This document shows positions 4,494 through 25,806 of a stretch of 36,671 nt of DNA, in pieces. Made by a program: the position numbers and the translations under genes. Source of the DNA: a virus. Positions within the stretch are counted from its first letter, which is position 1; the number at the start of each line of letters is the position of its first letter. The stretch lies in the IMG/VR virus record IMGVR_UViG_3300045988_038078, positions 1-36,671 of that record; one strand, 5' to 3'. The notes under the pieces are model-generated. The model searched no databases. It saw only the letters and a program-made list of their open reading frames with translations, and was not told the origin of the DNA.

Positions 4494-4525
4494 ATCAAGG
4501 TACACATGCGTGGTTATTTATGCTG

Positions 4526-4557
4526 CAAAGGTAAGAGAAACAACTGATGGTTCCAAA
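4526..4557 (-). promoter_or_regulatory. Bacteroidota-type promoter for the packaging/structural operon
   Basis: Minus strand reads TTTG (4557..4554), a 20-nt spacer, then TACCTTTG (4533..4526). This matches -33 TTTG / -7 TAnnTTTG and lies about 33 nt upstream of the terS ATG. Confidence 0.6.
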
Positions 4558-4574
4558 AGGGACCGGACCAAGTT

Positions 4575-5110
4575 ATGGTGATTCGGGGTGGGGTCGTGAA
4601 TCGCCAGGTCATCCCGCCCAAAACCAGGCGGATAGATTACTAGTCATTGTAAATACCTGATTCTCAGACGCTTACAAAATAGTGGATAGGTAGTGATTTT
4701 TTACTTTCCTATGTAACTCACTGATTCACTGTAATTTACCGAAAATGGATAGTTGGATAGAAAAAGTTCAAAGAGTATAGCCAAAAAACACGGTTTGCGA
4801 CGATCAATTAACTTAATTAAATTAACATATTTCTCCAACACACCGATTTTTCTTGTAATAGCAAATACCCCATTTTTACCCATTTTCCTATCCATCCTAT
4901 CATAACTAACTAATAATCAGTAACTTACATAGATAGATATATAAATAGTCACCTATCTTTAAATATGTTAACTAGCTTGAAATGAGCAACTTACAACGAT
5001 AGGTAAAAAATCACTACCTATCCATTTCCTTCTACTTGGTTTGTAACTTACTGTATTTCAGTCATTTAAGGGTATACTAGACGTTTCCCGTTTTCCCTGA
5101 TTTCCTATCT
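4575..5110. repeat. Noncoding box array A: (T)GGATAG / CTATCC boxes around an AT-rich core. Paralogous to 20270-20705.
   Basis: GGATAG at 4630, 4684, 4747, 4755. CTATCC at 4888, 5018. GATAGG at 4998. CCTATC at 4896, 4952, 5104. CTTACA co-motif at 4671, 4924, 4990. AT-rich core about 4795-4835 (gatcaattaacttaattaaattaac). Confidence 0.85.
4683..5024. repeat. Perfect 22-bp inverted repeat (4683-4704 and 5003-5024) bracketing a 298-bp segment
   Basis: TGGATAGGTAGTGATTTTTTAC at 4683-4704. Its exact reverse complement GTAAAAAATCACTACCTATCCA is at 5003-5024. Confidence 0.9.
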
Positions 5111-5401
5111 ACATGGGCCCTCGAAAACTACCGTTTTTAATGTTATGTAAATATTCTCGCTTCCGTATTTTCACCTCACAGCACCTTTGTATCCAAACTA
5201 TTCAAAACTAATCAAAAAGACGCAATGAAAAATTTTGACCACAGGTAGGGGTGAAAAACTGTTCTTCCGTTTTTTGGCAAAAATAGGGTGATTCAAAGGT
5301 TTTGCCTTCCTGTTGTAAACATTTATACACGATAATTTTGGAAACGTTTTATCATAGATTTCGCTACTTTGCACAAAACACTACCGTCACACGAAAATAA
5401 G

Positions 5402-5442
5402 AAACGAGGACCCTCGGCAATCACACCGGAAAGTCCTCGTTT
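5402..5442 (-). terminator. Rho-independent terminator after the small-gene operon
   Basis: 10-bp stem AAACGAGGAC (5402-5411) / GTCCTCGTTT (5433-5442). On the minus strand it is followed by CTTATTTTCG. It sits 26 nt after the stop of ORF 5468..6082. Confidence 0.6.
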
Positions 5443-5467
5443 GACACTATGAAATTAAGAAAAGGTT

Positions 5468-8155: not shown

Positions 8156-8359
8156 TTAATAGTTAATACCCGTTGACCCGTAAACTCCCCCTTCGTACCA
8201 TCTGCTAAGTTTTCCGAAGTATCCGTACTTTCTGTAATTCGGGATATCTGCTTTAAACATGCTCATGGCTTCCTTCTTGTTCGAAGCGTAATAACGGATT
8301 CCTGTATCTCTACCACTGCAATCTAACACACGGTACGTATTGTTCTGATTCTTTTTCAT
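8156..8359 (-). CDS. Hypothetical protein (67 aa)
   Basis: First ORF after promoter cassette copy 1. ATG at 8359. Confidence 0.5.
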   Translation of the reverse strand: MKKNQNNTYRVLDCSGRDTGIRYYASNKKEAMSMFKADIPNYRKYGYFGKLSRWYEGGVYGSTGINY

Positions 8360-8456
8360 ATCTTTTATTATTTAATTGGTTTCTTATTTCGATATGACAA
8401 ATGTACGGCGAAGTTTTTGTTTTGCCAAATTTTGAACAAAGTATTAACATTCATTA
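8353..8456 (-). promoter_or_regulatory. Promoter cassette copy 1 (about 105 bp, near-identical to 12174-12280)
   Basis: Minus strand reads TTTG (8429..8426), a 20-nt spacer, then TACATTTG (8405..8398). The conserved leader runs to ATGAAAA. An upstream block, AATTTTGAACAAAGTATTAAC, is shared with the other copies. Confidence 0.65.
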
Positions 8457-8466
8457 GTGGACAGAA

Positions 8467-8505
8467 GTTTCACAGTAACGTCCGTTAACGTTTATACTGT
8501 GAAAC
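8467..8505 (-). other. 11-bp stem-loop straddling the SNF2 helicase stop codon
   Basis: GTTTCACAGTA (8467-8477) pairs with TACTGTGAAAC (8495-8505). The loop contains the stop codon at 8485-8487. No U-tract follows. Confidence 0.4.
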
Positions 8506-11702: not shown

Positions 11703-11865
11703 CTTCTTCTACTGTATAAGTTAATAATACTCGGTCACATCTGAATAGTGCCATTACATTCGCTTTGAATTCTTCCGGGGTCAGCCCGGTTACCATGATA
11801 GGCGTCTTACTTATGGTGTCCCATACCTCGCCGTTAATGATGGTTACTTTTTCGATTCTCAACAT
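11686..11865 (-). CDS. Hypothetical small protein (59 aa, below the track cutoff): MLRIEKVTIINGEVWDTISKTPIMVTGLTPEEFKANVMALFRCDRVLLTYTVEEDENKD
   Basis: Translated by hand. ATG at 11865..11863, TAA at 11688..11686. The stop region overlaps the next start. Confidence 0.4.
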   Translation of the reverse strand: MLRIEKVTIINGEVWDTISKTPIMVTGLTPEEFKANVMALFRCDRVLLTYTVEEDENKD

Positions 11866-11936
11866 ACAAATAAAATATAAGCGGTGATTAACACACAGAT
11901 TCCGATGAATCCCAAAACGTTTAATACTTGTTTCAT
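11859..11936 (-). CDS. Possible 25-aa hydrophobic peptide MKQVLNVLGFIGICVLITAYILFVC
   Basis: Translated by hand. ATG at 11936..11934. The TGA at 11861..11859 overlaps the next ATG (ATGTTGA). Single TM-like core. Confidence 0.3.
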   Translation of the reverse strand: MKQVLNVLGFIGICVLITAYILFVC

Positions 11937-11951
11937 ATTCTTTGATTTTGT

Positions 11952-11967
11952 GGGCGGTTGCCCGCCC
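11952..11967 (-). other. GC-rich hairpin with a GNRA tetraloop on the minus strand (GGGCGG GCAA CCGCCC)
   Basis: Plus strand reads GGGCGGTTGCCCGCCC. No U-tract follows, so it is probably an RNA stability or processing element rather than a clean terminator. Confidence 0.35.
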
Positions 11968-11976
11968 GGTTAATGA

Positions 11977-12180
11977 CTAATTAAATACCTGTTCTACTCC
12001 GATTATGTAACCTACTCCGAACAGTCTGTTTAATTTCGGGTCGCTGTTTTTATAAATCTCGTCTACTATTTCGGCAAAACACGGAATTGTCTATTTTGGA
12101 AAATCCAGCCCTACTTTAATGGTTTTCGTTTTATTCACTTCGGTTATTTTAAACTTCACTTTTACTGTAATCGTTTTCAT
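11977..12180 (-). pseudogene. 67-codon reading frame interrupted by one in-frame TAG (12093..12091). The first part, MKTITVKVKFKITEVNKTKTIKVGLDFPK, may be a 29-aa gene.
   Basis: Translated by hand. The same frame continues after the TAG as TIPCFAEIVDEIYKNSDPKLNRLFGVGYIIGVEQVFN, ending at a TAG at 11979..11977. Confidence 0.3.
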
Positions 12181-12280
12181 ATCTTTTATTATTTAAATTG
12201 TTATTCTTATTTCGATATGACAAATGTATGGCGAATATTTGGTTTTGCCAAATTTTGAACAAAGAATTAACTTTGATTAA
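12174..12280 (-). promoter_or_regulatory. Promoter cassette copy 2
   Basis: Minus strand reads TTTG (12252..12249), a 20-nt spacer, then TACATTTG (12228..12221). About nine in ten positions match 8353-8456 by eye, including the leader and ATGAAAA. Confidence 0.65.
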
Positions 12281-12294
12281 CGATACAATAAAAA

Positions 12295-12331
12295 CCACCC
12301 TTACAGGACCGTCTCGGCTGTGTAAGGGTGG
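12295..12331 (-). terminator. Rho-independent terminator after the polymerase/primase operon
   Basis: Perfect 11-bp stem CCACCCTTACA (12295-12305) / TGTAAGGGTGG (12321-12331). On the minus strand it is followed by TTTTTATT. A second small hairpin, GAGGAC-CTCC-GTCCTC, sits at 12373-12388. Confidence 0.75.
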
Positions 12332-12458
12332 GAAAATTAGTGAAAAGCATTTGACTAAATTAGTTTCATGCTGAGGACCTCCGTCCTCGTGAGTTATTTG
12401 AGAATACTATATCTCTAAATGGTGCTACAAAGATAATGCTTTATTCGGTATATGTATC

Positions 12459-14819
12459 CTATCGCCGCACAAACATTGTTTGCTTACCATACAGCTTTAC
12501 GTTTTTCTGCTTGTCCGCCTTAAAACCTGCTCGTTTCAGCATGTTCGCCACCTGCTTAGCCCTTGCTACGTTGAAGTCGGTACGCTTGTTTCCTAGACAT
12601 TCTACCCAAATTTCGAAGGCGCAAAAGCTGTCCCGTATCTCTGTCCCTTCCGGTTGCAATCCCACTTCGTTAACGAAATCTAAGCGGTCGGCGAAATACA
12701 TGTCATTCCAATTAGTAGGGAACTTGCGGTTAACGTACTCGAATACTAAACCTTCTTGCGGGTCTTTCTCCGTGAACTCTTCACGTTTACCGTTGGCGAT
12801 CTCTTCGGCTTCCGGTGACAGGATAAGACTTTCACCTGCTTTATAAAGTTCCACGGCTTCCGCCCAAAGTTGATTAACGATTTCTTGAAACTCCGCTTTT
12901 CGTTTCGGATCGAGAAACACATCGGAGGCGGGGACACGTCTCACAGGGACCGGAAAGAATCGGCGGCTTCCTGTGGGGTCCTTAAGGAAATCATCGTTGT
13001 TGGTGGACCCAAAGAAAACACATTGCCGCCTGTGTGTCTTAACTCTCACCGCATACGCCGCCCGGTAAGTATCCTCCGTTTTAGAGATAAAGTTCTTCAT
13101 CGTCTCAATGTCGGTTTTCTTAAGGGCTGACAGTTCGGCAAGTTCCACAAGCCACGACTTTTGCAGGGCTTCATAAGCTTTAGTGCCTTCCATCGAAACA
13201 AGTGAGTCGTTAAACCAGCCGTTCGCCAACTTCTGAATAAGCGTTGACTTACCTACGCCCTGCTCTGATACCATGATGAACGCCGTATCGAACTTGGTTC
13301 CCGGTTCGAAGATGCGGGCAACTGCCGCCACGAGCATTTTACGGAATGCCTCAGCCGTGTAAATGTTTTGCTCGGCACCCATGTAATCGTGCATGAACGT
13401 GTCTATTCTTGGAATAAAATCCCATTCCCGATCATTCAAGTAGTCTTTAATCGGGTGGAAAGAATTCTCTAAAGCCAGTACCTCGATCACGTCGTTTAAC
13501 CTATCCTTCGCATACAGGCGGTGAAGGCGTTCGATTCTACATTTGATCACGGCTACTCCGGTATCGTCCAATACATCACCTTTTACTTTTGTCTTGTCAA
13601 AGTACGGTGTGCGGGTATAAACAATCACGTCACGGAAAAGGTCATAAGCAAGCAACTTATTCAGCAAAGGGTCCGACTTAAAGGCATTAATAAAGTTAAT
13701 GGTCGTGTTGGTCTTGTTACCTTTCGAATCCAAGTCCCATTCGATTTCCGTTTCTTCCTCTGTCTCTGCAATGGCCTCGTCCGGAATTTCCTCGAAGTCG
13801 CCTAAGTAATCCTCTACGGTGGTTAGTTCCTTAACGACTTCCGAATCCTCGTGTACTAGCTGGTTCATTGCCGTTTCGCTCTCCTTCTTTCCCAAGTGCC
13901 CGAACAAGTGGACGCGTACCAGGTCATAAGCGTTGTATGTGTGTCCGTCTCCGATGGGGTCGGTTGAATGGTGAGAATAGGCGAATTTATCTTCGTACAC
14001 TACCATGCCGGCGGCGGATGTTCCGCCCTTGTACGTGTATCGGTCGCCCTTGCATTCCTCGTAAACGTCAGACAGATATTTTTCTATCGCCCCCTGTATG
14101 GTGTAGACACGACAGAACGCACCGATTAATCCGGTCTTGGTTGTTGGGTCGGCTGATTCTTTGATGAGCGTTCTTACGGTCTGCTCTTCGCTGTCAGCGA
14201 ACGCCCATAGGCGAACGTCTTGCCAAGCCTCACCACCTCCGTACAAGCCTAGGATGTAGTCTACATCCAGTGGTTCGCCTTCTTGCTGCTCGAAGTAAAA
14301 TTGTTGGTCACAGGAAATGGTAGCCCAAAACATTAGGCGTTCGGCTTGAAACGTGGTCGGGTCGAACAGTTCAATCCCCATTATTTCAGCTACCTTGCGT
14401 GAACACGCCTCGTACTCTTCCCGTGTATCTATTTCCCGATTCAATGGGATAATGAGGCGGAATCTACGCTTGTTCGGCCTATCGGAACGTGTACCATAGA
14501 TGGCGGCGGCGCAACTGAATTTAACGGAGAAATCGAAAAAGAAATCATCATTCCCGTAGTCAACATCCAATGTGATGAGGGAACGTGATGTTACCGAATT
14601 CTTGGTACGGCGACCGCCGGAAAGCGTGCCACCCACAAAACCTCCTTTGTCTTTGCGGATAGCCCTTTCCGACTTCGCTAGCAAATCAAATTCCCTGACG
14701 GTTTCAGTATCCACCTTCGGCGTAGAAAGGATGCCTACCAGTTCGTCCCATGTGTAAGACTTCCTTTTCCAATTAGTCGAACGAGCACCACCACCGACAG
14801 AGATATTATATTTTTCCAT
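12459..14819 (-). CDS. DNA primase/helicase (VirE / P4-D5-like P-loop NTPase with an N-terminal primase-like region)
   Basis: Walker A VSEQGVGKSTLIQKL and Walker B-like WLVELAELS. N-terminal acidic motif LITLDVDYG (DxD-like). The 786-aa size and position next to the polymerase fit. Confidence 0.7.
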   Translation of the reverse strand: MEKYNISVGGGARSTNWKRKSYTWDELVGILSTPKVDTETVREFDLLAKSERAIRKDKGGFVGGTLSGGRRTKNSVTSRSLITLDVDYGNDDFFFDFSVKFSCAAAIYGTRSDRPNKRRFRLIIPLNREIDTREEYEACSRKVAEIMGIELFDPTTFQAERLMFWATISCDQQFYFEQQEGEPLDVDYILGLYGGGEAWQDVRLWAFADSEEQTVRTLIKESADPTTKTGLIGAFCRVYTIQGAIEKYLSDVYEECKGDRYTYKGGTSAAGMVVYEDKFAYSHHSTDPIGDGHTYNAYDLVRVHLFGHLGKKESETAMNQLVHEDSEVVKELTTVEDYLGDFEEIPDEAIAETEEETEIEWDLDSKGNKTNTTINFINAFKSDPLLNKLLAYDLFRDVIVYTRTPYFDKTKVKGDVLDDTGVAVIKCRIERLHRLYAKDRLNDVIEVLALENSFHPIKDYLNDREWDFIPRIDTFMHDYMGAEQNIYTAEAFRKMLVAAVARIFEPGTKFDTAFIMVSEQGVGKSTLIQKLANGWFNDSLVSMEGTKAYEALQKSWLVELAELSALKKTDIETMKNFISKTEDTYRAAYAVRVKTHRRQCVFFGSTNNDDFLKDPTGSRRFFPVPVRRVPASDVFLDPKRKAEFQEIVNQLWAEAVELYKAGESLILSPEAEEIANGKREEFTEKDPQEGLVFEYVNRKFPTNWNDMYFADRLDFVNEVGLQPEGTEIRDSFCAFEIWVECLGNKRTDFNVARAKQVANMLKRAGFKADKQKNVKLYGKQTMFVRR

Positions 14820-17563: not shown

Positions 17564-17589
17564 AATCGTAAATTTTTAAATTTGTTGTT

Positions 17590-17668
17590 ATTACTGTTTC
17601 TTTAAGACTCTGTAAATATAAGGCAAGTTTTTGATACTTCCTAATTTTGACAAAACTATTAACGTTGA
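17590..17668 (-). promoter_or_regulatory. Promoter region for the SSB gene (partial third copy of the cassette upstream block)
   Basis: AATTTTGACAAAACTATTAACGTTGATTAAC matches AATTTTGAACAAAGAATTAACTTTGATTAAC of copy 2. Candidate -7 boxes on the minus strand are TAGTTTTG (17658..17651) and TATATTTA (17620..17613). The -33 element is unclear. Confidence 0.45.
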
Positions 17669-18841
17669 TTAACTTTCGATGTCGAAATCACTTGATACAT
17701 CGTACTCCTTGCCGTTATGGCTGTCCGGTACAAGTTTAGGTGCTCCGGGCTGAGATTTAACGTATTCACCCAATTTGGCGGTGAAAACCCTCTTTCCTAC
17801 TAGCTTCTCTAGGTCGGTGATTCCTTTCAGACTGATATTCAGTACTTCGTCCTCTAAGTATTCTTTGAGAAGGATGTTACGCACCTTATCGGGGTCTACT
17901 ATCTTCCGGGCTGTCCGTCCTTCAACTAGCTTGTACCCTTCCCATTTCTTCCCCTTCATAGCTTCACTATACGCGTACTGGTTGAGCGATTCAAGCCATG
18001 ACTTATACCGATCCAGTTTACCAAGCATATCGACTATCTCTTCATCAGTCATAACCAATGTGTCGGGATGTTCCTCGAAGTCATGGGCTATTTCGTCCTT
18101 TTGCGCTCGGCATGTGGCTTTCACCGGGCAAAACTGGCACCAACTTCCTACCACCTGCTTTCCCTTCCCTTCGAACGCTAGCTTGGCTTTAGGCTGCAAT
18201 ATCTTCGTAGCCCATTCTAGCAGATCGGGGACCGACATTTCGATAGTATCGTAGTGGTGTAATCTAGGCTGTCCCACTGACATACGAACGTACTTGATAC
18301 TTCCGTTGTTGAACTTGGCAAGCGCGCCGAGTGCGTACATTTTGAACTGTGGGCTTTCCGCCGGGATCTTCACCCCCTTTCCATACTTAAGGTCTATGAT
18401 GTGCAGGATAGAAGGGGATAACAGTGTAACATCGGCACTACCGAACGATTCCGGTGCGAACTTAGAGATATCTAGCTTTTCCTCTAGATAGGTTGCCACC
18501 GATCCGCCTAGCGGTCCCTTCTGCATCTCGTAGAATTCTCCTACCACGAAGTTAACGTATTCGCCTACCGCATCCCTCATTTCCTCAGAAAAGTACTTGT
18601 TTTTGGCGATTTCATCCGGGACGGGCATCTCATCGCATTCGGGGTAGAACGCTCCATCTATCCAACTTTTCAGCGCATATTCCGCCAATTCGTGCGCTGT
18701 CGTACCTTCCTCGGCATATTCGCTTGTCTTGCTTCCGGCGGCTTCCACTAGGCGTGCGGACGGCGTGCAATTAAGCCAACGTTCGGAGGATGAAGGGGAC
18801 AGAACAGCGTGTCCCCTTTCTGAATGATTTATGCTTGACAT
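17669..18841 (-). CDS. PD-(D/E)xK / Cas4-like nuclease (DUF2800-like)
   Basis: N-terminus AVLSPSSSERWLNCTPS. Core IIDLKYGKG. C-terminal Cys cluster WCQFCPVKATC. Typical neighbour of DUF2815 SSB and PolA. Confidence 0.7.
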   Translation of the reverse strand: MSSINHSERGHAVLSPSSSERWLNCTPSARLVEAAGSKTSEYAEEGTTAHELAEYALKSWIDGAFYPECDEMPVPDEIAKNKYFSEEMRDAVGEYVNFVVGEFYEMQKGPLGGSVATYLEEKLDISKFAPESFGSADVTLLSPSILHIIDLKYGKGVKIPAESPQFKMYALGALAKFNNGSIKYVRMSVGQPRLHHYDTIEMSVPDLLEWATKILQPKAKLAFEGKGKQVVGSWCQFCPVKATCRAQKDEIAHDFEEHPDTLVMTDEEIVDMLGKLDRYKSWLESLNQYAYSEAMKGKKWEGYKLVEGRTARKIVDPDKVRNILLKEYLEDEVLNISLKGITDLEKLVGKRVFTAKLGEYVKSQPGAPKLVPDSHNGKEYDVSSDFDIES

Positions 18842-19610: not shown

Positions 19611-19796
19611 TTACTGTTTTTTAAAAGTTAAATATTTGTTAGTTATCTCGTTTTCGTCTACTCGTATCTTCCCCTGTTGGTTCTTATACTCGCTTAGATG
19701 ACCTTGCCGGATTTTGTACCGGATGGCATTTTCCGTCAGCCCTATCATGTGGGCGGCTTCGCTAATTCTAATCAGCTTTGGTTTTACTTCTTCCAT
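19611..19796 (-). CDS. Small HTH DNA-binding protein (excisionase/MerR-like HTH_17 type, 61 aa)
   Basis: LIRISEAAHMIGLTENAIRYKIRQGHL is a typical helix-turn-helix of this family. Confidence 0.7.
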   Translation of the reverse strand: MEEVKPKLIRISEAAHMIGLTENAIRYKIRQGHLSEYKNQQGKIRVDENEITNKYLTFKKQ

Positions 19797-19798
19797 TT

Positions 19799-20104
19799 TT
19801 AAAAATTCTTAGATTTGTGAAACGTACTCAAAAAATCTTTGTAAGCCATTTCCACCGCTCCGGCGTAAACCGAACGATACTTGTTAGCTGTTGGATAGAT
19901 GAACGCACGAATTTTAAACTCAAACTTTTCTCCGCCGTCCTCCCTCGCTAGCTTTTCACGAAATAACTCTTCGGTCGTTAGCCGAAACGGGGAACTGAAC
20001 TTGTTATATACGTCTGTGGCTTTTAATTGCGTATTGATGTGCAACCAAGCTTCGTCGTAATAGAACTTCTCTAGCTTGCAAAGATTAACTCTCTCTTTTC
20101 TCAT
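19799..20104 (-). CDS. Hypothetical protein, first gene of the early operon (101 aa from ATG 20104; the track start at 20122 is TTG)
   Basis: ORF directly downstream of the promoter-like element at 20203-20233. Confidence 0.5.
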   Translation of the reverse strand: MRKERVNLCKLEKFYYDEAWLHINTQLKATDVYNKFSSPFRLTTEELFREKLAREDGGEKFEFKIRAFIYPTANKYRSVYAGAVEMAYKDFLSTFHKSKNF

Positions 20105-20202
20105 AACTCGATTGTTTTGCAAATGACCCGTGAACGCTCGTATCGTTACTTTTGCGCTGCCTCGGAGGGTTGACAGCCCGTTTCATTTGTAATTCGATAC
20201 TG

Positions 20203-20233
20203 CAAAGATACGGCTTTTATTTGAATCTGCAAC
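20203..20233 (-). promoter_or_regulatory. Bacteroidota-type early promoter
   Basis: Minus-strand -7 box TATCTTTG (20210..20203). The -33 is imperfect (TTGC, about 19 nt upstream). The leader to ATG 20104 is about 100 nt. Confidence 0.5.
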
Positions 20234-20269
20234 AATTTAGGCAAAAGGAACCGCATCATTAACTTTTCT

Positions 20270-20705
20270 TAGGGATTCGGGGTGATTTTGAGGCGTGGAT
20301 AGATAACTATCCGTTATAAACGGTTGATTCCTAGTGAGTTGAGTAATTAGTGGATAGATTAAAATGTGTTAAAAAACCACGTAAGTTGCTGCAAATCAGC
20401 GTTTTATGGAAAAGTGGATAGATAGGCGCAAACTTCTCAAGAGTATAGCGTAAAAGTGTGTATGTTGATTGATAAATAATCTACACAAGCTAAAAATACA
20501 CACTATAAAAGTTTTCTCATACATACATGGAAATTACCTATCCTACCTATCTATATTGTTATAAAAGCCTTTAGATTAGCAAGTTACGAGGATAAGTGAA
20601 AAAGTGTTTCCTATCTGTATAAATGTTAATCCCCTGCAAATCATCGACTTACAGGGGATAGGACTTTGGATAGGTTAATTTATTTAACTCGATTTTGCTA
20701 TCCCG
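20270..20705. repeat. Noncoding box array B, collinear paralog of 4575-5110
   Basis: GGATAG at 20297, 20352, 20416, 20656, 20668. CTATCC at 20307, 20538, 20698. GATAGG at 20421. CCTATC at 20546, 20610. Blocks shared with array A include GATTCGGGGTG, TAGTGGATAG, AAGAGTATAGC, CCTATCT..AAATGTTAA and ACTTACA..GATAGG. Confidence 0.85.
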
Positions 20706-20708
20706 ACA

Positions 20709-21275
20709 TTACAATTCAGCACTAAATCGGACGTGTAACCGTGATTTTGGATTCTGATTTGTGACTGTGGTCTGTATTTTGGGCTTTCCAATTCTAAAAA
20801 ACAAGAACCTTTTCTGCTTAACATGGCTAATTACGTCTAGCGTATCAACGGAACTAAATTCTAATTTGGTAGTATCGGGGGAAATTACGCCACTAATTTT
20901 GTTCCAAGAATCATCGTAGGAGAATTTATACTGGTTCGGGACCTCCGTTTTCTCGGTTACTACTACCGTATCTATCCGTAACTCTGATTTTATGGTGTGT
21001 ACCGCCTTAACGTCCCTTAACTTTAGACATAGGTTTGCCACCTGTTCTGTTAAACGACTGTTAAACAATTCTAGCTCATTACTTTTCAAAGTTAGGGCTT
21101 GGACCGTCTCAGCATCCTTTCCCGCCTTCGTTTTGAACCGGGTAGCCTCGGTGTTTAGGGCTTCGATGTTGCTATCTAGCCGCCGTATCTCCTTCCGTTG
21201 GCTTTCCACCTTATTATATAAGATGCCTACTACTATGAGAAGTAGTAGGCAACCTGCGATTAAGTATTTGCTCAT
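20709..21275 (-). CDS. Spanin-like / lysis accessory protein (N-terminal membrane anchor plus coiled coil, 188 aa)
   Basis: N-terminus MSKYLIAGCLLLLIVVGILY, then a heptad-rich segment QRKEIRRLDSNIEALNTEATRFKTK. ATGA-coupled to the amidase gene. Confidence 0.4.
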   Translation of the reverse strand: MSKYLIAGCLLLLIVVGILYNKVESQRKEIRRLDSNIEALNTEATRFKTKAGKDAETVQALTLKSNELELFNSRLTEQVANLCLKLRDVKAVHTIKSELRIDTVVVTEKTEVPNQYKFSYDDSWNKISGVISPDTTKLEFSSVDTLDVISHVKQKRFLFFRIGKPKIQTTVTNQNPKSRLHVRFSAEL

Positions 21276-21778
21276 GGCGTGACGATTACGTTTTTCATGA
21301 ACGTTCCATATTCCGCCCTGACATCATAGCAGGGACACATCTTAATGAACTCGTATGGTTCGATCTCGCCGCTTCCGTTCTTATCGGGTGACGTGTCGCG
21401 GTGTCCCAATAGCTCCACGATAGGATAGCGTTTACATATGTCGTTGATTAGGTCTATCAACGCCGCTTTCTGTTCCGGCGTGCGGGTATCCTTCGCTTTC
21501 CCCGCCTTGTCCAAACCGCCTACGTAGCAGATACCGATTGAATGGCGGTTATACGATTCTTTAGAGAATCCTTTAGTATTGCAGTGGGCGCCGATCGCGG
21601 TTTCATTCCTACCCTTTTCTACCTTACCATCTAGGCGGATAACATAGTGGTAGCCGATACCGTTAAAACCTCGCTGCTTGTGCATGGCATCAATCTCCTT
21701 TGCGCCGATATCTTGCCCTTCCCTAGTGGCTGAGCAATGAATAATAATGGCGTCTACTTTATTGCTGTTGTTGATCAT
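21272..21778 (-). CDS. N-acetylmuramoyl-L-alanine amidase endolysin (Amidase_2 / PGRP, T7-lysozyme-like)
   Basis: IIIHCSAT, GYHYVI, AIGAHCN ... HSIGICYVGG, LLGHRD, MCPCYD (zinc ligands His, His, Cys). Confidence 0.9.
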   Translation of the reverse strand: MINNSNKVDAIIIHCSATREGQDIGAKEIDAMHKQRGFNGIGYHYVIRLDGKVEKGRNETAIGAHCNTKGFSKESYNRHSIGICYVGGLDKAGKAKDTRTPEQKAALIDLINDICKRYPIVELLGHRDTSPDKNGSGEIEPYEFIKMCPCYDVRAEYGTFMKNVIVTP

Positions 21779-25278: not shown

Positions 25279-25806
25279 CTAAGTTAATTTGTTAGCTTCT
25301 AAGTAAGTCCAAACAGCGGGCAAAGCAACCATGTTGCGATCACCCCGTGAATTATCCGGCGTTTTCAATGTAACGGTTACGAAACCGCCTGCTGTGGATG
25401 TATCCCCGTCCATGCTTGCCGCCTCTAGTCCTGCGTAAAGTCCTGCGACTTTAATGTTACCACCGTCTTTCAGTTTTGCAAAAGCTACGAAGTTACCGGA
25501 AAGGAGGGATTCAAGAATCGCCATGCCATCGGATGACTTATCGTAAACCGTAATCGTTACCGTCTGTTCCATGCCCGCCGCACCATCAAGCGAACGCAAA
25601 GCGTCCGTGATTTTAGCACCGTTCTTGTAACAGTCAACCGGGATAGCCTTCCCATCGGACACGAGCTCAATAGACTTTACTACTACGTCGCTACCTGTCA
25701 CAAATGAGGCAAGTTCCGCCTTGTTAACAAGGTATATCCCCGCCAAACCGACGGAACCACCTGCGCACCCGAACGTGATAGCCTTATTTAGTTTAATACA
25801 TGCCAT
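25279..25806 (-). CDS. 175-aa-family structural protein, paralog 1
   Basis: First of three tandem homologous ORFs, directly after the capsid gene. Confidence 0.5.
   Translation of the reverse strand: MACIKLNKAITFGCAGGSVGLAGIYLVNKAELASFVTGSDVVVKSIELVSDGKAIPVDCYKNGAKITDALRSLDGAAGMEQTVTITVYDKSSDGMAILESLLSGNFVAFAKLKDGGNIKVAGLYAGLEAASMDGDTSTAGGFVTVTLKTPDNSRGDRNMVALPAVWTYLEANKLT

Follow-up and report, generated by a model that had tools for sequence, protein, structure and literature searches.

Two diverged iteron-type modules in a Bacteroides phage as candidate origin-like loci for a phage-encoded primase-helicase

The DNA analyzed here is a stretch of 36,671 nucleotides from the IMG/VR virus record IMGVR_UViG_3300045988_038078, referred to below as the window, which is essentially the complete 36.7-kb genome of a siphophage of Bacteroides thetaiotaomicron from the ARB25/SJC01/BT19 group (hereafter cluster alpha). 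It carries two related non-coding modules of roughly 450 bp made of short repeated boxes: module B (20270-20705), between the last late gene, of the lysis region, and the early promoter, and its paralogue module A (4575-5110), in the interval from the early operon's end to the promoter of the small terminase gene (terS). Both modules are real and conserved, and they are probably functional. We consider it fairly probable that A and B are two diverged iteron-type, origin-like loci for PriRep, the primase-helicase that the phage itself encodes (786 aa; 12459-14819, minus strand). An earlier note on this DNA, made from the sequence, had offered two alternatives, namely one factor coordinating both sites or two origin-like loci. 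Origin-like loci are now the better supported of these, because the phage has a primase-helicase resembling the Rep proteins of staphylococcal pathogenicity islands (SaPIs), because the modules have a SaPI-type layout, and because in relatives switches of the box track residues in the C-terminal domain (CTD) of PriRep. By analogy, the best reading of the design is a SaPI-type ori combined with a pairing like that of oriL and oriR in phage SPP1.

Repeats, alignment and layout of the two modules

The repeated box has the 9-bp consensus ATCTATCCA, with the core CTATCC, and is accompanied by CTATCT and GATAG variants. Counted on either strand, exact hexamers number six in module A and eight in module B, against 0.70 per kb elsewhere, which is an enrichment of about 20-fold (Poisson P of 3e-6 for A and 1e-9 for B). 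The eight hexamers of module B stand where the earlier note had placed them, with GGATAG at 20297, 20352, 20416, 20656 and 20668 and CTATCC at 20307, 20538 and 20698; the palindrome GGATAG-ATAA-CTATCC that it described is likewise present in the sequence, at 20297-20312.

Global alignment of 4575-5110 with 20270-20705 gave a score of 50, against 4.1 +/- 2.3 in 300 dinucleotide shuffles (z ~20), with 68% identity over 395 aligned pairs. Module B had been described as a collinear copy of A, and the alignment reproduced the proposed register (4627/20292, 4680/20348, 4742/20410, the GAGTATAGC block, 4887/20537, 4922/20580 and 4989/20647). The stricter wording, that the copy is repeated block by block and in the same order, does not hold, since sub-elements such as GTAAGT...CAG are inverted between A and B. 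A purely local alignment was also significant, but because the modules are internally periodic its register slipped by one unit of ~64 bp, and it was replaced by the global alignment.

Read along the sense strand, which is the minus strand and carries all the real genes of the window, both modules follow a common plan: an arm of GATAGG-type boxes is followed by an AT-rich centre of 86-125 bp and then by a second arm, whose three TCTATCCA(C) boxes stand 63-64 and 54-55 bp apart in both modules; some 65-95 bp past this last arm lies a canonical Bacteroides promoter. In each module the boxes are oppositely oriented on the two sides of the centre and are phased at ~55 and ~64 bp (5-6 helical turns), with mixed orientation in some of the distal boxes. 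The centre is indeed AT-rich, as had been noted, albeit moderately so (70-76% AT against a genome mean of 54%). When stability was computed over 100-bp segments, 4874-4973, which adjoins the centre of module A, was the least stable of the genome, and 20467-20566, in module B, the fourth least stable.

In module B, the GGATAG boxes at 20297, 20352 and 20416 face CTATC-type boxes at 20538, 20547 and 20611. The arm beside the early promoter consists of three plus-strand iterons: GTGGATAGATA (sense TATCTATCCAC) at 20295-20305, which forms the palindrome with CTATCC at 20307-20312; GTGGATAGATT at 20350-20360, 55 bp from the first; and a further GTGGATAGATA at 20414-20424, 64 bp from the second and overlapping a GATAGG at 20421. 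The second and third copies are invariant in the alignment of module B, which comprises six phages. The AT-rich centre (20451-20536, 76% AT), in which several short blocks are invariant across relatives, is the presumed DNA-unwinding region. Beyond it come two minus-strand iterons of opposite orientation (CCTATCCTACCTATCT, 20536-20552) as the first boxes of the other arm, the variant CCTATCTG on the minus strand 64 bp further out (20609-20617), and finally the distal boxes at 20654-20703 (GGATAG 20656 and 20668; CTATCC 20698).

In module A the facing boxes are 4630, 4684, 4747 and 4755 on one side and 4888, 4897, 4953 and 5018 on the other. The arm beside the terS promoter (4627-4760, plus strand) holds GGATAG at the first four of these positions, with spacings of 54, 63 and 8 bp; the centre occupies 4762-4886 (70% AT), and the opposite arm (4887-5109, minus strand) contains CCTATC-type boxes at 4887, 4896, 4952, 5017 and 5104 together with GATAG at 4932 and 4998.

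Between the boxes of both modules there is a second conserved element of ~19 nt (GTAAGTTGCTGATTTNCAG), of the form GTAAGT..CTGATTTGCAG, along with a TTAACA motif. In module B this element reads GTAAGTCGATGATTTGCAG at 20634-20652 (minus strand), with copies at 20569-20587 (minus) and 20381-20399 (plus), all interleaved with the iterons; in the opposite arm of module A, GTAAGT...CAG elements occupy 4910-4928 and 4976-4994. Nine GTAA[GC]T sequences were counted in the modules where 0.98 were expected (P 1e-6), and the GTAAGT-type element is kept in relatives, the clade of phage BF1-2 included.

The gene context of the window was read by comparison with annotated relatives. The gap that contains module B (20123-20708) has on one side the last late gene, whose product is a DUF6549 protein encoded downstream of the amidase, and on the other the first early gene; the gap that contains module A (4506-5467) separates the last early gene from terS, so that both modules do lie at operon boundaries, as the note had stated. 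Its figure of 586 bp for the first gap is right if the distance is measured to a TTG codon at 20122; taking the ATG at 20104 as the end point gives 604 bp. As a separate observation, the 11-mer GATTCGGGGTG (sense CACCCCGAATC) occurs only twice in the genome, at 4580-4590 and 20274-20284, each time between a module and its promoter; its conservation in relatives is partial.

Conservation of the modules in related phages

Region B was recognizable in 53 related phage records at 68-70% identity, and a 5-kb segment across it shares 89% identity with phage BT19. Across relatives, region A has diverged further than region B. By direct inspection, both modules were found with boxes at conserved positions in BT19, ARB25, SJC01, BT709P1 and BT24, and also in IMG/VR contigs. 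The paired arrangement, which had been proposed as something to look for in related phages, is kept in every relative examined. The box and spacer comparison, made on six phages, gave a mean column conservation of 0.93 in boxes against 0.80 in spacers for module B and of 0.85 against 0.74 for module A (permutation P of 2e-4 and 2e-3, respectively). The pattern of conserved boxes and diverged spacers proposed from one genome is thus borne out, and it fits selection on protein-binding sites.

Within each genome, A and B align at 66-70% identity, and a module resembles its orthologues in other genomes more closely than it resembles the second copy in its own. This agrees with the former view that no recent duplication is involved; the duplication is older than the radiation of cluster alpha, with both copies retained since then.

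It could also be thought that the modules are pac recognition arrays for the small terminase, or else a structured non-coding RNA. Module A does lie directly upstream of terS, these phages seem to use headful packaging, and some GTAAGT..ATTTGCA elements can form sense-strand hairpins with G-T pairs. The better conserved copy is nevertheless module B, ~15.6 kb away from terS, and two pac sites would yield two packaging series; on these grounds the pac-site reading was rejected. With regard to RNA, searches of the window for Rfam families (at gathering thresholds), tRNA and tmRNA found none, and the conservation is not RNA-like, because it is confined to short boxes in both orientations while the spacers have diverged. 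The note's exclusion of a conserved RNA is therefore upheld, and we regard this pair of explanations as very improbable.

The clade of phage BF1-2 shows the same two-module layout, with a primase-helicase 67% identical to that of the window, but both of its modules carry the box ATCTATGCA and never ATCTATCCA. Since the box changes together in the two modules of this clade, from C to G at one position, a single sequence-specific factor appears to be common to both, which supports the one-factor half of the earlier proposal. Moreover, BF1-2, with the GC box, and BF1-3, with the CC box, were isolated on one and the same strain, B. fragilis BL19; because phages of one host strain differ in their box, its reader should be phage-encoded and not a host protein such as DnaA.

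The last point bears directly on the idea that the boxes are clusters of host DnaA boxes which recruit or titrate DnaA. The promoter-proximal boxes of the window, TCTATCCAC, resemble TTATCCACA and match 7/9 positions of the E. coli consensus, and the difference between CC and GC falls at the degenerate fifth position of that consensus. However, the conserved flank of the boxes (ATCTATCCA) is on the 5' side and is AT, whereas positions 8-9 of the supposed DnaA box vary (CAA, CAT, CTA, CCC, CGT); the boxes of one genome are all C or all G at the variable position rather than mixed; and distant relatives have unrelated boxes (GAAACAATG, CTGGTAACAC) that track a phage protein. A DnaA-box cluster (TTATNCACA), as judged by the E. 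coli consensus, was consequently rejected, given that positions 8-9 are not conserved and that the box differs between phages of one host strain, and we hold this explanation to be extremely improbable.

Concerning the annotation of BF1-2, its iteron boxes at 25459-25487 fall inside the annotated start of terS (287 aa, L006 25472-26335), and similarity to the 211-aa terS product of the window begins only near 25727. This annotation seems over-extended at its 5' end.

PriRep as the candidate reader of the boxes

PriRep, the proposed iteron reader, consists of three parts: an N-terminal primase, a VapE/SF3 helicase of the self-loading, SaPI-Rep-like type, and a CTD of ~95 residues. Its N-terminal 376 residues match PHROG primase families, and PHROG DNA primase/helicase families were matched as well; the Pfam VapE-like domain was found with an E-value of 6.5e-75, and residues 372-704 match PDB entry 7PDS with an E-value of 4e-70, this entry being a Rep helicase from the study of the staphylococcal SaPI 'self-loading' Rep helicases. 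The search found no replicative helicase-initiator other than this VapE/SF3-type protein, the small open reading frames (ORFs) having been partly scanned, and the other helicase of the phage is of the SNF2 type. The CTD (residues 690-786; 12462-12752, minus strand) is the predicted DNA-reading domain. It diverges more than the rest of PriRep, and its AlphaFold2 (AF2) model has a mean predicted local distance difference test (pLDDT) score of 92.7 and a strand-helix-helix-hairpin topology.

Other candidates for reading the boxes are the products of the first two early genes (19611-20104, minus strand), a 101-aa protein whose fold is unassigned and a 61-aa HTH_17 protein (19611-19796; E 1.5e-5). 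For the 101-aa protein AF2 gave a model too poor to use (pLDDT 57.6), and a search for its homologues returned close relatives only. In BF1-2 the two genes are one fused gene of 167 aa (gp13, L006 8998-9498), and on account of this fusion the two proteins probably work together.

Covariation of box and PriRep residues in distant phages

Using the primase-helicase as a probe, more distant phages were found. In one group of 36-kb phages, the PriRep proteins are 94-99% identical (98-99% in all but L066), yet the repeated box differs among them, and so do a few residues of the CTD; the box has switched three times independently, each time with substitutions that recur at shared C-terminal positions. 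Taking only the substitutions at or near the C-terminal hairpin, phages L049, L054 and others have the box GAAACAATG and the reference residues S778, T779 and N781; L047, L048 and L061 have GGAACAATG with S778A, T779S and N781R; L051 has GACACAATG with T779N and N781K; and L066 has TGTAAACAATG with N781R, I784T and K787T. Residues 778, 779 and 781 are in the first strand of the hairpin and correspond to K770, Q771 and N773 in the PriRep of the window, where 751-763 is a putative recognition helix; in L051 four of the nine differences over 796 residues fall between positions 774 and 790.

A scan for site association then took in each early protein for which all four box classes have an orthologue. 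Perfect association with the box was limited to two sites, PriRep N781 and one residue in a small gene that overlaps the end of PriRep, the latter being a likely case of hitch-hiking. The first early protein of this group does not follow the box, given that alleles 69% identical share a box and alleles 92-93% identical differ in it. This covariation between residues and box is the strongest evidence that PriRep would be the reader.

The layout itself is found again in these phages. In the groups whose PriRep is 41% and 38% identical to that of the window, two modules are placed around the early region, each group having its own boxes. In L088, ten CTGGTAACAC repeats, arranged as inverted sets around a 100-bp AT-rich stretch, start at the stop codon of PriRep.

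Further observations were made on the modules of these relatives. L066 has two near-identical tandem copies of the upstream module (1270-1700 and 1950-2345), with 12 TGTAAACAATG boxes each, and a third copy in the terS-side position, from ~18612 to the end of the locus. L048, an IMG/VR contig of 17,953 bp, begins and ends in near-identical modules (1-460 and 17570-17953), and its assembly was probably broken at the module repeat; near-identical modules are thus a practical hazard for assembling these phages. In L049, tandem repeats of 18 bp (three copies) and 25 bp (four to five copies), CAGTAGAATTGGTGCCAAATTGGTC, lie at 20812-20954, between the terS-side module and the putative terS, and may be related to packaging. 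Some 51-kb relatives have an extra gap (L036 16082-16617 and L022 15946-16451) with 8-9 copies of AATGCCACAG/CTGTGGCA, which are unrelated to the GAAACAATG boxes upstream of the early genes in the same phages.

Promoters and the question of transcription control

Promoters were searched for with a TTG-N17-23-TAnnTTTG scan made for this genome; the Bacteroides consensus is said to have been given by Bayley et al. in 2000 as TTTG / TAnnTTTG. Promoter-like sites were not in excess in a sigma-70 scan, a type of scan that does not cover Bacteroides promoters. The early promoter, P_E (20203-20232, minus strand), has its -33 element TTG at 20230-20232, a 19-nt spacer and the -7 element TATCTTTG at 20203-20210, and falls within a block in which the six aligned phages do not vary. 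The late promoter, P_L (4526-4558, minus strand), with the -33 element TTTTGG at 4553-4558 and the -7 element TACCTTTG at 4526-4533, is located directly upstream of terS, ~20 nt ahead of its start, and is conserved in the module A alignment of relatives. Boxes serving as the -33 element of TGATTTGCAG-type promoters were also considered and rejected, since the distances from box to element are inconsistent (11, 16 and 23 nt).

The proximity of modules and promoters suggests another explanation, which sees the modules as arrays for transcription control: by occupying the phased boxes, a small early protein that binds DNA would shut off early transcription and/or turn on late transcription, and replication would start elsewhere. 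The candidate would be the 61-aa HTH_17 protein, possibly together with the 101-aa first early protein, and such control is compatible with an origin function. Several facts speak for it. The modules end 65-95 bp upstream of the -33 elements of P_E and P_L, the second early gene encodes an HTH_17/MerR-like protein, the box reader appears to be phage-encoded, and the two early proteins, fused in BF1-2, have diverged there (57% identity for the HTH_17 protein and 47% for the first early protein) alongside the change of box. On the other hand, the other two intergenic consensus promoters of the genome, at 12228 and 8405, have neither module nor boxes; the boxes reach 100-600 bp upstream of the promoters, and inverted sets around an AT-rich centre are the layout of an origin and not of an operator. 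In addition, the alleles of the first early protein in the 41% group do not track the box whereas the CTD residues of PriRep do, the array of L088 is at the 3' end of PriRep, and covariation between the HTH protein and the box could not be shown. Weighing these facts, we find this explanation unlikely.

The two promoters without modules belong to a near-identical consensus pair on the minus strand, at 12190-12235 and 8367-8412 (ATTTGGCAAAAC.AAA.A.TTCGCC.TACATTTGTCATATCGAAAT), in the gaps 11703-12458 and 8360-8484, and within the early region they probably serve as matched 'middle' promoters. The leader that runs from P_E to the first early gene (window 20105-20200) exists in two unrelated versions, one in the window and BT709P1 and the other in BT19 and ARB25; the latter (~100 nt, GTTAGACGTTCAGCCCCACCGAAACCGGGTTGAGG...; L003 ~20990-21200, L005 ~21090-21300) is tandemly duplicated in SJC01 and BT24. 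Downstream of P_E, the leader RNA of the window folds no better than its shuffles (z = 0.01).

Opposing evidence and proposed mechanism

Several observations weigh against A and B being origin-like loci for PriRep. A regulatory role would also fit the place of both modules, each of which has the -33 element of a consensus promoter 65-95 bp away and lies upstream of it. Cluster alpha offers a single clade-level switch of the box, and all proteins that have diverged co-vary with that switch; among them are the first early proteins (47-57% identity with BF1-2), so that the 101-aa protein and the 61-aa HTH_17 protein are rival candidates for the reader. The covariation by residue comes from the 36-kb group, whose PriRep is only ~41% identical to that of the window. 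Neither module adjoins the PriRep gene, A being ~7.3 kb beyond its stop and B ~5.5 kb upstream of its start, and the third large gap of the genome, which does adjoin PriRep (11703-12458), has no repeated boxes. A Foldseek search of the CTD against the PDB gave no significant match (best E 0.33), the weak hits being to winged-helix domains of PadR/LmrR, IRF and ORC proteins, and for this reason the assignment of a winged-helix-like fold is provisional. GC and AT skew show a monotonic coding-strand bias and no signal of an origin or terminus. SaPI iterons are more closely packed than the boxes described here, which stand 55-64 bp apart with the second ~19-nt element between them, and neither this spacing nor the interleaved element is known to be typical of SaPI origins. 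Finally, no description of these modules was found in the literature searched, nor any account of the replication origins or the early/late control of cluster-alpha phages.

If A and B are origin-like loci read by PriRep, as we favor, infection could proceed as follows. After early transcription from P_E, the winged-helix-like CTD of PriRep would bind the boxes. PriRep hexamers would then form on both arms and open the AT-rich centre by melting, and priming would fall to the N-terminal primase, extension to the family-A polymerase of the phage. The second module might be a second origin or an initiator-bound site, comparable to oriR of SPP1 or crr of P4, that aids initiation or stalls forks. 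Stalled forks could hand replication over to the recombination set of the phage (exonuclease, annealing protein and VRR-NUC), and the resulting concatemers would be packaged by the headful mechanism from the adjacent terS. Module B is under tighter sequence constraint than A, and our guess is that it is the primary origin.

A more elaborate version, possible though doubtful, is a division of labor under one initiator, in which B would be the origin and A a PriRep-bound fork barrier as well as the switch of the late promoter. Module A would then turn theta replication into concatemer synthesis driven by recombination, the expression of late genes would be coupled to replication, as would headful packaging, and a second factor would have its site at the interleaved 19-nt element (GTAAGT..CAG).

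Other features of the genome

Phages of cluster alpha circularize on assembly and seem to use headful packaging. Just after the last early gene and upstream of module A, an inverted repeat followed by a T-run (5402-5442, minus strand) forms a hairpin that is the likely terminator of the early operon; it was overlooked by a simple terminator scan because its loop is 21 nt, and in the module A alignment of relatives it is present only in the window and BT19. Genes of the recombination type encode a DUF2800/PD-(D/E)XK exonuclease, an Enc34-type single-stranded DNA (ssDNA)-binding protein and an SNF2 helicase, and there is also a small nuclease whose counterparts in relatives bear the annotation VRR-NUC. 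The first early protein, the 259-aa and 204-aa proteins and several of the small early proteins were scanned against Pfam and PHROG, and either no family was matched or the family had no known function. A 67-aa ORF at 8156-8359 encodes a protein 100% identical to one in BF1-2 (L006 ~22018), with no tblastn match in BT19, ARB25 or BT709P1, the three closer relatives compared; judging from this distribution, it looks like a recent horizontal exchange between clades.

Comparison with known replication systems

The SaPI origins have 6-12 iterons of 5-6 nt, divided equally between the two sides of an AT-rich centre, with at least two iterons per side in opposite orientation, and they are read by the winged-helix CTD of the self-loading Rep helicase (PMC9371898). 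This likeness was tested feature by feature. The phage of the window encodes a Rep-family SF3/VapE-like initiator-helicase (7PDS, E 4e-70), its primase-helicase fusion is as described for PriRep5 of SaPI5, and the small CTD of PriRep would be the likely iteron reader. The number of short iterons (six exact hexamers in A and eight in B, plus degenerate copies) is within the SaPI range, and in both modules oppositely pointing iterons, at least two per side, flank the AT-rich centre. In the relative L088 the array is directly 3' of the PriRep gene, which is the SaPI position. Besides their spacing, the modules differ from SaPI origins in that there are two per genome in the window, neither beside PriRep, the position next to the gene being seen only in L088; in that they belong to a lytic Bacteroides siphophage and not to a Gram-positive island; and in that the CTD of PriRep has no sequence match or significant fold match to the CTDs of SaPI Rep proteins.

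In SPP1, oriL and oriR share the same organization of repeats and an AT-rich unwinding element, lie ~13 kb apart on the circularized genome and are both bound by gp38; oriR is intergenic among late genes and has been proposed to stall forks and so lead to recombination-dependent concatemer synthesis, which uses an exonuclease, an annealase, an ssDNA-binding protein (SSB) and a resolvase (PMC6316719). The phage studied here is likewise a unidirectionally transcribed, apparently headful-packaging siphophage, with two separated and similarly organized loci (A/B 68% over 395 bp, z ~20) in every relative examined. One reader for both loci is suggested by the concerted change of box in the BF1-2 clade, and a matching toolkit is present in the window: the PD-(D/E)XK exonuclease, the Enc34-type ssDNA-binding protein, the VRR-NUC-annotated nuclease and the SNF2 helicase. 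The systems differ in that SPP1 employs gp38, the loader gp39 and the DnaB-type gp40 where a single primase-SF3 helicase is found here, in that its oriL is contained in gene 38, the two modules of the window being intergenic and upstream of promoters, and in that there is no sequence similarity.

Satellite phage P4 provides a further parallel. The C-terminal winged-helix domain of its alpha primase-helicase reads one short iteron in both ori and crr, and both regions aid replication. The likeness is that of one primase-helicase reading the same short iteron in two separated cis regions; the PDB sequence search with PriRep did not hit P4 alpha. P4 has its two regions 4.5 kb apart, on either side of the alpha gene, and crr consists of two 120-bp direct repeats, so that, in contrast to the modules described here, it is not a symmetric copy of ori. 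Iteron plasmids (P1, R6K, pSC101) and clusters of DnaA boxes also have phased short repeats beside an AT-rich region, and an initiator could 'handcuff' two such sets. However, no gene for a RepA/pi-type initiator is present in the window phage, a lytic phage would have no evident use for handcuffing as a control of copy number, and the boxes of the modules are not DnaA boxes.

Phages of cluster alpha (ARB25, SJC01 and relatives) are the main laboratory models of lytic infection in Bacteroides thetaiotaomicron. Locating their likely cis-acting replication elements and the reader of these would offer targets for phage engineering, such as minimal replicons, shuttle vectors for Bacteroides and sites for safe deletion, and the box variants set against three CTD residues provide a natural specificity code that can be directly tested. 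Undescribed in the literature searched, the modules appear to be a known design in a new example, a SaPI-type iteron origin duplicated in the manner of SPP1 in gut Bacteroides phages. A paired-origin layout like that of SPP1 recurs with an unrelated initiator of the SaPI type in several groups of related phage contigs that encode a primase-helicase, which hints that a second initiator-bound locus beside the packaging genes has a general role.

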